From assembly GCA_951406725.2 (NCBI GenBank), contig OX597829.1, positions 558,001-622,000 on the forward strand: a DNA stretch of 64,000 bases. Reading direction: 5' to 3'. This document shows, in pieces, positions 31,173 through 39,404 of the stretch. Numbering within the stretch: the first letter of the stretch is position 1; the number at the start of each line of letters is the position of its first letter. The position numbers and the translations under genes were made by a program. Below the pieces are notes generated by a model that saw only the letters and a list, made by a program, of their open reading frames with translations, made no database searches and was not told the origin of the DNA. The DNA comes from Octopus vulgaris (taxonomy: Eukaryota).

Positions 31173-31837
31173 AAAAAGGTTTATCAAAGGCTAAACAACA
31201 ACAGCTGCAACAAAATTATGGAGCTAATATATACAAATCTGCAATAGCCTGTCACGCCCCAGCAATTACCTTCATGTTCCTTGATGGTAGATAAGTAGGT
31301 AATTACAACAACGGTAATCTTTCAGTATTTGTCTGAGATCACAACACAACACCATTTACACGATATGAGCAGGAGACTTTTTCAGCCTTGAGTTTGTGAG
31401 GTTTTTCTCATTTCACACACGGACTTCTTGAAACGGTTTTGTTGGGTTTAAGAAAATGCTGTGTCGGTGACGGTTTACCCTTATTTATAAATAGGCGTTC
31501 TACGTATTATAAATTGTCTTTAGACAGAAACCATTAAATCGTGTGGGCAACACCGGTGAAGTTTGCCATTATGAAGCAATACGCTGTTTGACGAAAGATA
31601 TACGAAGGACGTTTCCTGTCGCCTTCACAATTTATGGCCAACCGTACATGCTAATGAAACGGTGTTGTGTACTTCTAAACGGCACCGTTTTGTAAATTGG
31701 TACATTGAAAGATTGATGGCCCAAGTACCTTTGTTAAATAAGGAACTCGATGAAAAAGAATATGCATACATATATATATCTGTGTGTGTGTGTGTGAGAG
31801 AGAGAGAGAGTGTGTGTGTGTGTGTGAGAGAGAGAGA

Positions 31838-31870
<33 letters not shown>

Positions 31871-31914
31871 TGTGTGTGTGTGTGTGTGTGTGTAGGCTAC
31901 ATATATTACATATG

Positions 31915-32002
31915 GCTTACGGCCATATCACATTGAAAGCACCGGTTCTCGTCCGATCACCGAAGTTAAGCAACGTCGAGCCTAATTAGTACTTAGATGT
32001 GT
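31915..32002 (+). pseudogene. 5S rRNA-derived sequence (first ~88 nt), 3' truncated
   Basis: GCTTACGGCCATATCACATTGAAAGCACCGGTTCTCGTCCGATCACCGAAGTTAAGCAACGTCGAGCCTAATTAGTACTTAGATG matches the invertebrate 5S consensus from nt 1; last ~30 nt absent. Confidence 0.9.
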
Positions 32003-32395
32003 GGAAAGAAGCTTGCTTCCCAACCATATGGTTCCGAGTTCAGTCCCACTGCATAGCACGGTGAACAAGTGTCTTCTGCTGTAGCCTCGGGCTGACCAAA
32101 GCCTTGTGAGTGGATTTGGTAGATAGAAACTGAAAGCTCGTCATATATATATGCGTTTGTGTGTGTGTGTGTTTGTGCATATATTTAGGGGTATGTCTTT
32201 GTATCTGTGTCCCGCTTCCATCGCTTGACAACCGATGTCGGTGTGTTTACGTCTCTGTAACATAGCATTTCGGCAAAAGAGACCGATAAAGTAAATACTA
32301 AGCTTACAAAGAATAAGTTCTGGTATTGATTTCTTCGACTAAAAGGCGGTGCTCCAGCATGGTCACAGTCCAGTGACTGAAACAAGTAAAATTAA
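31998..32395 (+). mobile_element. SINE family C body fused to the 5S fragment
   Basis: TGTGTGGAAAGAAGCTTGCTTCCCAACC... to ...GTGACTGAAACAAGTAAAA; lacks the first ~15 nt of the family head. Confidence 0.9.
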
Positions 32396-33545: not shown

Positions 33546-33610
33546 ATTAATATTTTACGAGTAAAAATAAACGAATTAACAAATAACACCGAAATAAGGT
33601 CTACCTTTGT

Positions 33611-36600
33611 CTTAACACTCCATCAATAACCACTCCATCTTAACCACTCCATCTTAACCACTCCATCTTAACCACTCCACTCCATTAACAAATCCACCTT
33701 AACCACTCCATCTTAACCACTCCATCTTAACCACTCCATCCTTAACCACTCCATCTTAACCACTCCATCTTAACCACTCCATCTTAACCACTCCATCAAT
33801 AACCACTCCATCTTAACCACTCCATCTTATCCACTCCATCTTAACCACTCCATCTTAACCACTCCATCTTAACCACTCCATCTTAACCACTCCATCTTAC
33901 CCACTCCATCTTAACCACTCCATCTTAACCACTCCATCTTAACCACTCCATCAATAACCACTCCATCTTAACCACTCCATCAATAACCACTCCCGAAACT
34001 AAGGCTACCTTTGTCTTAACCACTCCATCAATAACCACTCCATCTTAACCACTCCATCTTAACCACTCCATCTTAACCACTCCACTCCATTAACCACTCC
34101 ATCTTAACCACTCCATCAAATCCACTCCATCTTAACCACTCCATCTTAACCACTCCATCTTAACCACTCCATCCATAAATCCATCTTAACCACTCCATCT
34201 TAACCACTCCATCTTAACCACTCCATAAATTAACCACTCCATCTTAACCACTCCATCAATAACCACTCCATCTTAACCACTCCATCTTAACCACTCCATC
34301 TTAACCACTCCATCTTAACCACTCCATCTTAACCACTCCATCTTAACCACTCCATCTTAACCACTCCATCTTAACCACTCCATCTTAACCACTCCATCTT
34401 AACCACTCCATCTTAACCACTCCATCTTAACCACTCCATCTTAACCACTCCATCTCAACCACTCCATCTTAACCACTCCATCTTAACCACTCCATCTTAA
34501 CCACTCCATCTTAACCACTCCATCAATAACCACTCCATCTTAACCACTCCATCTTAACCACTCCATCTTAACCACTCCATCTTAACCACTCCATCTTAAC
34601 CACTCCATCTTAACCACTCCATCAATAACCACTCCATCTTAACCACTCCATCTAACCACTCCATCTTAACCACTCCATCTTAACCACTCCATCTTAACCA
34701 CTCCATCAAACCATCTCCATCTTAACCACTCCATCTAACCACTCCATCTTAACCACTCCATCTAACCACCATCTCCATCCATCTTAACCACTCCATCTTA
34801 ACCACTCCATCTTAACCACTCCATCAAGAACCACTCCATCTTAACCACTCCATCTTAACCACTCCATCTTAACCACTCCATCTTAACCACTCCATCTTAA
34901 CCACTCCATCTTAACCACTCCCATCACTCCATCTTAACCACTCCATCTTAACCACTCCATCTTAACCACTCCATCTTAACCACTCCATCTTAACCACTCC
35001 ATCTTAACCACTCCATCTTAACCACTCCATCAATAACCACTCCATCTTAACCACTCCATCTTAACCACTCCATCTTAACCACTCCATCACCATCTTAACC
35101 ACTCCATCTTAACCACTCCATCCTTAACCACTCCATCTTAACCACTCCATCTTAACCACTCCATAACCACTCCATCTTAACCACTCCATCTTAACCACTC
35201 CATCAATAACCACTCCATCTTAACCACTCCATCTTAACCACTCCATCTTAACCACTCCATCAATAACCACTCCATCTTAACCACTCCATCTTAACCACTC
35301 CATCTTAACCACTCCATCTTAACCACTCCATCTTAACCACTCCTTAACCACTCCATCTTAACCACTCCATCTTAACCACTCATCATCTTAACCACTCCAT
35401 CTTAACCATCAATAACCACTCCATCTAACCACTCCATCTTAACCACTCCATCAATAACCACTCCATCTTAACCACTCCATCAATAACCACTCCATCTTAA
35501 CCACTCCATCATTAACCACTCCATCTTAACCACTCCATCTTAACCACTCCATCTTAACCACTCCATCTTAACCACTCCATCTTAACCACTCCATCTTAAC
35601 CACTCCATCTTAACCACTCCATCTTAACCACTCCATCTTAACCACTCCATCTTAACCACTCCATCATAACCACTCCATCATAACCACTCCATCTTAACCA
35701 CTCCATCAATAACCACTCCATCTTAACCACTCCATCTTAACCACTCCATCAATAACCACTCCATCTTAACCACTCCATCTTAACCACTCCATCTTAACCA
35801 CTCCATCAATAACCACTCCATCTTAACCACTCCATCTTAACCACTCCATCTTAACCACTCCATCTTAACCACTCCATCTTAACCACTCCATCAATAACCA
35901 CTCCATCTTAACCACTCCATCAATAACCACTCCATCTTAACCACTCCATCTTAACCACTCCATCTTAACCACTCCATCAATAACCACTCCATCTTAACCA
36001 CTCCATCTTAACCACTCCATCTTAACCACTCCATCTTAACCACTCCATCAATAACCACTCCATCTTAACCACTCCATCAATAACCACTCCATCTTAACCA
36101 CTCCATCTTAACCACTCCATCTTAACCACTCCATCTTAACCACTCCATCAATAACCACTCCATCTTAACCACTCCATCTTAACCACTCCATCTTAACCAC
36201 TCCATCTTAACCACTCCATCTTAACCACTCCATCAATAACCACTCCATCTTAACCACTCCATCAACCACTCCATCTTAACCACTCCATCTTAACCACTCC
36301 ATCTTAACCACTCCATCTTAACCACTCCATCTTAACCACTCCATCTTAACCACTCCATCTTAACCACTCCATCAATAACCACTCCATCTTAACCACTCCA
36401 TCTTAACCACTCCATCAACCACTCCATCTTAACCACTCCATCTTAACCACTCCATCTTAACCACTCCATCTTAACCACTCCATCTTAACCACTCCATCTT
36501 AATCACTCCATCTTAACCACTCCATCTTAACCACTCCATCTTAACCACTCCATCTTAACCACTCCATCTTAACCACTCCATCTTAACCACTCCATCTTAA

Positions 36601-39404
36601 CCACTCCATCTTAACCACTCCATCTTAACCACTCCATCAATAACCACTCCATCTTAACCACTCCATCTTAACCACTCCATCTTAACCACTCCATCAATAA
36701 CCACTCCATCTTAACCACTCCATCTTAACCACTCCATCTTAACCACTCCATCTTAACCACTCCATCAATAACCACTCCATCTTAACCACTCCATCTTAAC
36801 CACTCCATCAATAACCACTCCATCAATAACCACTCCATCTTAACCACTCCATCTTAACCACTCCATCAATAACCACTCCATCTTAACCACTCCATCTTAA
36901 CCACTCCATCTTAACCACTCCATCTTAACCACTCCATCTTAACCACTCCATCTTAACCACTCCATCTTAACCACTCCATCTTAACCACTCCATCAATAAC
37001 CACTCCATCTTAACCACTCCATCTTAACCACTCCATCAATAACCACTCCATCTTAACCACTCCATCTTAACCACTCCATCTTAACCACTCCATCTTAACC
37101 ACTCCATCTTAACCACTCCATCAATAACCACTCCATCTTAACCACTCCATCTTAACCACTCCATCTTAACCACTCCATCTTAACCACTCCATCTTAACCA
37201 CTCCATCTTAACCACTCCATCTTAACCACTCCATCTTAACCACTCCATCAATAACCACTCCATCTTAACCACTCCATCTTAACCACTCCATCTTAACCAC
37301 TCCATCTTAACCACTCCATCTTAACCACTCCATCTTAACCACTCCATCTAACCACTCCATCTTAACCACTCCATCTTAACCACTCCATCTTAACCACTCC
37401 ATCAATAAACTCCATCTTCCATAACCACTCCATCAATAACCACTCCATCTTAACCACTCCATCTTAACCACTCCATCAATAACCACTCCATCTTAACCAA
37501 TTCCATCAATAACCACTCCATCTTAACCACTCCATCTTAACCATCTCCATCCATTAACCACTCCATCTTAACCACTCCATCTTAACCACTCCATCAATAA
37601 CCACTCCATCTTAACCACTCCATCTTAACCACTCCATCAATAACCACTCCATCTTAACCACTCCATCTTAACCACTCCATCTTAACCACTCCATCTTAAC
37701 CACTCCATCAATAACCACTCCATCTTAACCACTCCATCTTAACCACTCCATCTTACTCCATCTTAACCACTCCATCTTAACCACTCCATCTTAACCACTC
37801 CATCTTAACCACTCCATCTTAACCACTCCATCTTAACCACTCCATAACCACTCCATCTTAACCACTCCATCTTAACCACTCCATCTTAACCACTCCATCT
37901 TAACCACTCCATCAATAACCACTCCATCTTACCACCATCTAACCACTCCATCTTAACCACTCCATCTTAACCACTCCATCTTAACCACTCCATCTTAACC
38001 ACTCCATCTTAACCACTCCATCTTAACCACTCCATCTTAACCACTCCATCAATAACCACTCCATCTTAACCACTCCATCTTAACCACTCCATCTTAACCA
38101 CTCCATCTTAACCACTCCATCTTAACCACTCCATCTTAACCACTCCATCTTAACCACTCCATCAATAACCACTCCATCTTAACCACTCCATCTTAACCAC
38201 TCCATCTTAACCACTCCATCTTAACCACTCCAAACTTAACCACTCCATCTTAACCACTCCATCTTAACCACTCCATCTTAACCACTCCATCTTAACCACT
38301 CCATCAATAACCACTCCATCTTAACCACTCCATCTTAACCACTCCATCAATAACCACTCCATCTTAACCACTCCATCTTAACCACTCCATCTTAACCACT
38401 CCATCTTAACCACTCCATCTTAACCACTCCATCAATAACCACTCCATCTTAACCACTCCATCTTAACCACTCCATCAATAACCACTCCATCTTAACCACT
38501 CCATCTTAACCACTCCATCTTAACCACTCCATCTTAACCACTCCATCTTAACCACTCCATCTTAACCACTCCATCTTAACCACTCCATCTTAACCACTCC
38601 ATCTTAACCACTCCATCTTAACCACTCCATCAATAACCACTCCATCTTAACCACTCCATCAATAACCACTCCATCTTAACCACTCCATCTTAACCACTCC
38701 ATCTTAACCACTCCATCTTAACCACTCCATCTTAACCACTCCATCTTAACCACTCCATCTTAACCACTCCATCTTAACCACTCCATCTTAACCACTCCAT
38801 CTTAACCACTCCATCAATAACCACTCCATCTTAACCACTCCATCTTAACCACTCCATCTAACCACTCCATCTTAACCACTCCATCTTAACCACTCCATCA
38901 ATTAACCACTCCATCTTAACCACTCCATCTTAACCACTCCATCTTAACCACTCCATCTTAACCACTCCATCTTAACCACTCCATCAATAACCACTCCATC
39001 TTAACCACTCCATCAATTAACCACTCCATCTTAACCACTCCATCTTAACCACTCCATCTTAACCACTCCATCTTAACCACTCCATCTTAACCACTCCATC
39101 TTAACCACTCCATCAATAACCACTCCATCTTAACCACTCCATCAATAACCACTCCATCTTAACCACTCCATCTTAACCACTCCATCAATAACCACTCCAT
39201 CTTAACCACTCCATCTTAACCACTCCATCAATAACCACTCCATCTTAACCACTCCATCTTAACCACTCCATCAATAACCACTCCATCTTAACCACTCCAT
39301 CTTAACCACTCCATCAATAACCACTCCATCAATAACCACTCCATCTTAACCACTCCATCTTAACCACTCCATCTTAACCACTCCATCTTAACCACTCCAT
39401 CAAT
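33611..39404. repeat. 14-bp minisatellite (CTTAACCACTCCAT)n, ~5.8 kb, roughly 410 units
   Basis: Homogeneous tandem array with an interspersed 15-bp variant CAATAACCACTCCAT. Confidence 0.98.

Follow-up and report, generated by a model that had tools for sequence, protein, structure and literature searches.

A decayed 5S rRNA–SINE chimera in Octopus vulgaris and the genome-wide class of small-RNA chimeras around it

Does a 5S rRNA sequence that runs straight into a SINE mark a SINE3-like family in the octopus, a single template switch by a reverse transcriptase, or the fusion by deletion of two independent neighbours? We analysed this question for one such junction in a 64-kb stretch of Octopus vulgaris DNA (C16:558001-622000, hereafter the window), using the whole 2.8-Gb assembly of 227 contigs as the search space. 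The 5S head noticed in the first-pass annotation of the window is real: nt 1 lies at 31915 (Rfam RF00001, 60 bits, E 4.4e-10), nt 1-89 are 96% identical to a clustered 5S gene, and the match is unbroken through nt 85 (31999) before continuing, after one mismatch, to nt 89 (32003). A SINE, here called SINE C, adjoins this head without a spacer; other SINE C copies in the window align from query position 80-88 on, and comparison among SINEs indicates that ~17-19 nt of the focal 5' end are missing, close to the ~15 nt estimated initially. The small RNA is therefore 5' of the retroelement, on one strand and abutting it (Table 1), and the region upstream of 5S nt 1 is unlike that of the cluster genes on contigs C4 and C5, i.e. 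it lacks the gene flank. As had also been reported, no convincing target-site duplication (TSD) surrounds the focal locus, the sole candidate being 4 nt (ACAT) around the 5S and the first SINE in the paralogs on contig C20 (described below), which is within chance. ARAGORN found no tRNA within the 64-kb window.

Table 1. Features at and around the 5S–SINE junction, in window coordinates.
Feature	Position	Strand	Basis
Segmental duplication common to the window and two places on contig C20	24289..40032		Collinear blocks, approximate limits
(TG)n/(AG)n microsatellite just 5' of the insertion	31781..31893	+	Sequence
Likely cDNA snap-back extension (ATATG, the reverse complement of 5S nt 10-14)	31910..31914	+	Proposed mechanism
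5S rRNA nt 1-85	31915..31999	+	Rfam and comparison with clustered gene
5S box A, intact	31964..31978	+	Presumed box limits
5S intermediate element, one substitution	31981..31986	+	Presumed limits
5S box C position, 10/18 bases matching, across the junction	31994..32011	+	Comparison with genomic 5S gene; presumed limits
First SINE C copy, 5'-clipped head	32000..32065	+	19/20 informative sites like paralog SINE 1
Box B-like motif of the SINE	32036..32046	+	Sequence; presumed consensus
Interval holding the crossover of two SINE C copies that once stood in tandem	32066..32077	+	Informative-site comparison with paralogs
Second SINE C copy, body and tail, with internal (TA)n(TG)n	32078..32395	+	68/77 informative sites like paralog SINE 2
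Two-hairpin 3' tail of a type common to an RT-encoding LINE	32345..32383	+	Fold z -2.2; tail variant ends a LINE with RVT_1

To describe the promoter of the 5S head, we took the boxes to lie at +50-64, +67-72 and +80-97, limits assumed from Xenopus numbering. That box A is present and box C interrupted had been called correctly at first reading; box A is intact, and the intermediate element (IE), likewise called present, carries one change. At box C only 10 of the 18 positions match the genomic 5S gene, with G86 and nt 90-96 lost. Since box C is damaged and the first run of four T occurs only at about +1000, the focal 5S promoter is predicted to be dead and the locus, judged by its sequence, to be transcriptionally silent. 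In the RNA contigs of four runs, no listed piece spans the focal junction and repeats swamp the signal, while a sequencing-run search returned no run containing half of the query words. An 11-mer at 31994-32004, rebuilt by a 9-nt deletion, matches the SINE's own box A-like motif at 9/11 positions and has the usual spacing to box B; a weak type-2 promoter at the focal SINE might therefore conceivably exist.

When the junction was used as a DNA query, it gave two further full matches in the genome, both on C20, and a pattern in which 5S nt 85 and the SINE head could be separated by as many as 30 nt had exactly three genome matches, namely the window and two places on C20. All three copies have a common unique flank on both sides, within blocks that are collinear over ~10-16 kb, and are DNA duplicates of one insertion. 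Over the unique upstream flank, the window differs from the C20 copies by 18/558 and 19/538 substitutions (3.2-3.5%), and the two C20 copies differ from one another by 1.5%. A genome search with the junction had been suggested as the way to recognise a family; the junction turned out not to be unique, but all of its copies lie within one segmental duplication, and the proposed branch of 5S/tRNA hybrid SINEs was not borne out. A SINE3 family built on the focal junction was rejected on the same grounds, there being no copies at unrelated sites, three copies with shared flanks and a damaged box C. Inside the duplicated segment the window also carries a 5.8-kb array of a 14-mer (33610-39401), which both C20 paralogs almost entirely lack at the corresponding position.

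The C20 paralogs are less decayed. Their 5S part reaches nt 91, GTGAC/GTGGC forms the boundary with the SINE, and SINE C is present twice, in tandem. In the window, the junction is 9 nt shorter, through a deletion between TG repeats, and the SINE is a mosaic, SINE 1-like at 19/20 informative sites up to 32065 and SINE 2-like at 68/77 after 32077, which indicates a recombinational collapse of the two tandem copies. With a longer junction and two SINEs in the paralogs, the window junction is secondary, and the window copy has been altered by at least two later deletions. The one-off template switch put forward at first is thereby supported in outline, although the window does not preserve the primary RT junction.

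Turning to 5S sequences elsewhere, we found 256 genome matches, on both strands, to an exact pattern for one variant of the 5S 3' end, a choice that favours young, intact copies. The first 100 matches (C1-C6) were taken as the sample; three from the C4 cluster were omitted to leave 97, of which three are C5 cluster genes and 94 are dispersed. In this sample (first 100 of 256), 83 of the 94 dispersed copies with an intact 3' end have a same-strand partner starting no more than ~30 nt away. The partners are SINE C (32), a short hairpin tail (33), SINE A (9), what we take to be an RTE-type 3' end (6) and the tRNA-like SINE B (3). No antisense partner was labelled among the 97 loci examined, and 6 of the 11 dispersed copies (of 94) that have no assigned partner continue into sequence repeated at other loci. 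In this genome, a dispersed 5S copy normally precedes a SINE. A short trailer with a terminal T separates 5S nt 120 from the partner, and the trailers TCCATT, TCCC, TACC and AGCACAT match clustered 5S genes on C4 and C5, the upstream flanks of which are absent from the dispersed copies. Trailers and partners pair in free combination, and SINE partners often start at the SINE's first base. The two gene clusters, at 35.2-35.3 Mb of C4 (L015-L021, L135-L137) and 16.4-16.5 Mb of C5 (L106-L108), differ in both upstream flanks and trailers; for the commonest captured trailer (CACACATT), no matching gene was seen in the cluster stretches read. The 5S copies L034 and L097 are embedded in one and the same flanking repeat, which at L097 also occurs inverted on the opposite side.

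Chimeras of this kind could arise if SINEs and LINEs inserted by site preference into the T-rich trailers of resident 5S, U6 and tRNA retrocopies. Site-specific LINEs targeting small-RNA genes are described in part of PMC4494074, and the SINE/LINE elements here favour AT-rich sites. TSDs nevertheless point to a single insertion: for SINE A partners, a TSD of at least 8 nt surrounds the small RNA together with the SINE in 5/11 cases (one, L165, ambiguous) and the SINE alone in 0/11, compared with 5/23 for solo SINE A and a mean of 1.3 (maximum 3) after shuffling. Furthermore, the trailer is repeated after the partner in 0/58 chimeras, clustered small-RNA genes carry no such SINE/LINE insertions, and at least five partner types would need one common target. 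We therefore regard insertion by site preference as very improbable. For SINE C and short-tail partners (58 loci, after 14 of 72 labelled loci with no definable end were dropped), the TSD signal is weak: a score of at least 8 was reached in 11/58, where the null maximum was 7, yet (TA)n accounts for 8 of these 11. At L039 and L101, the head of a SINE A has been interrupted by a chimera of 5S and a second SINE A that arrived in one piece, in L039 with a 12-nt duplication.

The junctions themselves were compared through a genome-wide pattern combining the 5S end with the hairpin tail. It has 63 matches (two of them perhaps not 5S), and all 63 junction strings differ by eye, which implies that the captures were independent. 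Also by eye, 43 of the 63 lack a run of four T, so those full-length chimeras combine a promoter, open read-through and a LINE tail. This would fit a true 5S/tRNA hybrid SINE3 family derived from a master copy, whether through the focal junction or through the full-length chimeras, and such families exist in moths and vertebrates (described in parts of PMC3272025 and PMC4494074). Yet the only copies of the focal junction are three with shared flanks and a damaged box C, none of the 63 junctions is repeated, and trailers and partners combine freely. Nor did SINE C heads behind the commonest trailer cluster (14 changes; shuffled mean 14.9; 150/500 as low) or share a diagnostic change, in a tree of 87 SINE C heads that is star-like, with 4/84 branches supported, and has low power for a no-clade test. 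Descent from a master copy thus has next to no probability. By the criterion that separates chimeric retrocopies from a SINE family in the relevant part of PMC4494074, the dispersed 5S chimeras are independent chimeric retrocopies.

A further trace is found at the far end of the insertions. In 8/40 full-length dispersed copies, nt 1 is preceded by 3-5 nt that are the complement of 5S sequence starting at nt 10 (background 0.016, p 1.7e-7), and the focal copy has the 5-nt form (ATATG). These nucleotides probably represent a snap-back of the cDNA end.

The same was true of U6 and tRNA-Leu. Among 30 of 48 listed U6 loci, 8 are gene-like and the 22 others (22/22) are same-strand chimeras with the same partners as 5S, including a U6–tail chimera at L160. 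For tRNA-Leu (first 30 of 62 loci), 19 are gene-like and 10 of the 11 others are same-strand chimeras with a SINE or LINE tail (L202, L205-L207, L211-L213, L225, L226 and L230); all ten retain a 3' trailer, none has CCA and seven have the intron. In the case of U1 (40 of 42 loci), 35 of 40 are gene-like and a SINE/LINE partner was found in 0/5 dispersed copies. The retained trailers and introns, the missing CCA and the uncaptured U1 imply that what was captured were Pol III products in the nascent state, U-rich at the 3' end, and point to nuclear, nascent RNAs with 3' oligo-U as the substrates. Two tRNA-Leu chimeras of the intron-bearing type are spliced and still have their trailer; a few leader bases, matching those of the gene L203, survive in L202. 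The dispersed U1 copies L265, L268 and L270 keep a 3'-box trailer followed by (TAA)n or (TTA)n, with no SINE partner, which suggests another retrocopying route.

One variant of the hairpin tail has 1851 exact genome copies and forms the 3' end of an RT-encoding LINE (RVT_1 domain), which we take, from motifs in its translations, to be CR1/L2-like. Across the first 30 of these copies (L171-L200), very many insertions consist of just the ~50-nt tail, truncated at the base of the first hairpin; ~9/30 extend into the LINE and 2 to 4 of the 30 carry a small-RNA passenger. ARAGORN found no tRNA in the tail loci L178, L181 and L190, and Rfam did call L178.

For the focal locus itself, we favour co-insertion, with a probability of roughly 0.6: a reverse transcriptase would have jumped from SINE RNA onto an unprocessed 5S transcript, and deletions would have followed. 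Target-primed reverse transcription of SINE C RNA by a LINE enzyme would have been succeeded by an end-to-end jump onto pre-5S RNA at its U-rich 3' terminus, extension of the cDNA to nt 1, snap-back (ATATG) and integration beside the microsatellite. About 55 nt between GTGAC and GTGGC (5S nt 92-120, the trailer and the SINE 5' end) would then have been deleted, and the 10-16 kb segment duplicated, after which the window copy alone would have undergone the 9-nt TG-to-TG deletion and the collapse of its tandem SINEs. A later deletion at the join is favoured by the rarity of 5S copies cut near nt 90 and by the internal deletions that other chimeras (L023, L025, L030) carry near the join. A search pattern for 5S termini close to nt 90, able to see ~40% of them, gave 1 match as against 256 intact 3' ends. 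Recurrent truncation of 5S at loop D was rejected, as this one match is a short fragment before (GAT)n.

The C20 junction could instead be primary, the enzyme having left the SINE RNA ~17 nt early and re-primed at 5S nt 91 via GTGGC/GTGAC, or having joined a 5S fragment cut at loop D. It does show microhomology, and human 5S/L1 chimeras, though mostly antisense, are often truncated at position 90 according to a portion of PMC11838501. With a single match for 5S ends near nt 90 by the pattern just described, and no independent case of the junction pattern in the genome, we consider a primary C20 junction improbable.

The two parts could also have arrived in sequence, a 5S retrocopy of later date, together with a short partner of its own, landing just upstream of an older SINE C and being fused to it by one microhomology deletion. 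The focal 5S differs from the gene at 1/82 positions and SINE 1 from an approximate subfamily majority, drawn from 8 copies, at 13/144, which hints that the 5S may be the younger; the missing TSD and the tandem SINE C pair, evidence that the site gathers insertions, would fit as well. However, this gap is inside the range of other chimeras (0.011 vs 0.087; 0.04 vs 0.113), and 5S and SINE divergence were uncorrelated across 26 chimeras (rho 0.16, p 0.45). Sequential arrival also needs an extra same-strand insertion within ~100 nt upstream, when SINE C is already the partner of 32/94 dispersed 5S (first 100 of 256 matches), and we judge it unlikely. A deletion between independent neighbours, which the first-pass annotation had named as the outcome that would undo its reading, keeps a modest chance at this one locus, but 5S before a SINE is the typical arrangement of dispersed 5S.

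As for the mechanism that generated the class, it is likely that a LINE reverse transcriptase, having copied LINE or SINE RNA up to its 5' end, jumps onto the 3' end of a freshly made Pol III RNA nearby. End-to-end jumping has reportedly been seen with R2. A Pol III SINE transcript has a triphosphate at its 5' end, and pre-5S and whole SINE transcripts normally carry neither a cyclic phosphate nor a 5'-OH. Because RtcB ligation, the explanation given for human U6/L1 chimeras in part of PMC6789731, needs a cyclic phosphate and a 5'-OH, it is less likely here. The precursor state of the captured RNAs (trailer, intron, no CCA) also argues for template jumping over RtcB ligation in these lineages.

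A SINE-like 5S retropseudogene of Dictyostelium, made by LINE template jumping, was reportedly described by Szafranski in 2004, to go by the title; the mechanism would be the same, with one type there as against hundreds of independent events and several partners here. Vertebrate U6 chimeras comprise U6–L1, platypus U6–L2 and U6–Mon-1, and lizard U6–L2, U6–RTE and U6–AnolisSINE2, as described in parts of PMC4476161 and PMC6789731. Like the octopus chimeras, they consist of a Pol III RNA followed on the same strand by part of a LINE or SINE, inserted in one event and with independent junctions. In platypus, moreover, the non-gene U6 copies are nearly all chimeric and the TSDs of stringent LINEs are short or absent (same part of PMC4476161), which parallels the octopus U6 loci and the weak TSD signal for SINE C and tail partners. 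Unlike the vertebrate cases, as far as these sources cover them, 5S and intron-bearing pre-tRNA are captured here as readily as U6, unprocessed trailers are kept, partners are often whole SINEs from the first base, and the host is an invertebrate. In human, 5S makes up ~10% of 253 chimera candidates and tRNA accounts for 21 loci, mostly antisense and truncated (from part of PMC11838501); these 5S/L1 and tRNA/L1 chimeras were likewise co-inserted with a retroelement, but those of the octopus are sense, mostly full length and equipped with a trailer.

HaSE3 of Helicoverpa (PMC3272025) and the 5S-headed DeuSINEs (PMC4758252, PMC4494074) are, in the sections consulted here, 5S/tRNA hybrid SINE3 families in which a 5S head precedes a tRNA-SINE body that ends in a LINE tail, and for which a template-switch origin has been proposed. 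They are uniform families with boxes A, IE and C, whereas the focal junction was not amplified by retrotransposition: it has the 5S head and the LINE-related tail of a SINE3 and lacks both an intact A/IE/C set and numerous copies at unrelated sites. PittSINE of pittas, a CR1-mobilised SINE, gained a new head through a proposed small-RNA switch (part of PMC5729268); there a chimera became a family and the event is reconstructed, while here many individual events are visible and none was seen to spread. The focal structure thus resembles the presumed founders of HaSE3, the 5S-headed DeuSINEs and PittSINE, and fails the family tests.

Taken together, the focal locus is an ordinary, decayed one-off. 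The structure of such chimeras is already known from U6, and the scale for precursor 5S and tRNA is apparently new, as far as our searches go. In the literature searched, outside Repbase, Dfam, subscription papers on octopus SINEs and supplements, we found no sense, precursor-state capture of 5S or pre-tRNA at such scale and no cephalopod 5S/pre-tRNA chimera or SINE3. On balance the evidence leans, if slightly, towards a broader view, in which reverse transcriptases from three or more LINE lineages would routinely end insertions by jumping end to end onto nascent, unprocessed Pol III transcripts, leaving hundreds of independent proto-SINE3 elements, with an intact 5S promoter, no terminator and a LINE tail, none of which spreads. 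If true, the octopus genome would hold a natural library of failed SINE births, and the reasons for the rarity of 5S-headed SINEs would become testable. The origin of SINEs by capture of a small-RNA head is usually deduced afterwards; here the products of capture exist by the hundred, with the precursor state frozen in DNA. The class would also allow a direct test of the idea, relayed in part of PMC3272025, that retroposed 5S heads are silent through loss of upstream signals. For annotation, dispersed 5S, U6 and tRNA hits in this genome should be read with care, being mostly chimeric retrocopies. At one further locus (L009/L010, C25 5.35 Mb), two complete 5S copies lie head to tail, connected by a 10-nt trailer, as two successive jumps would give.
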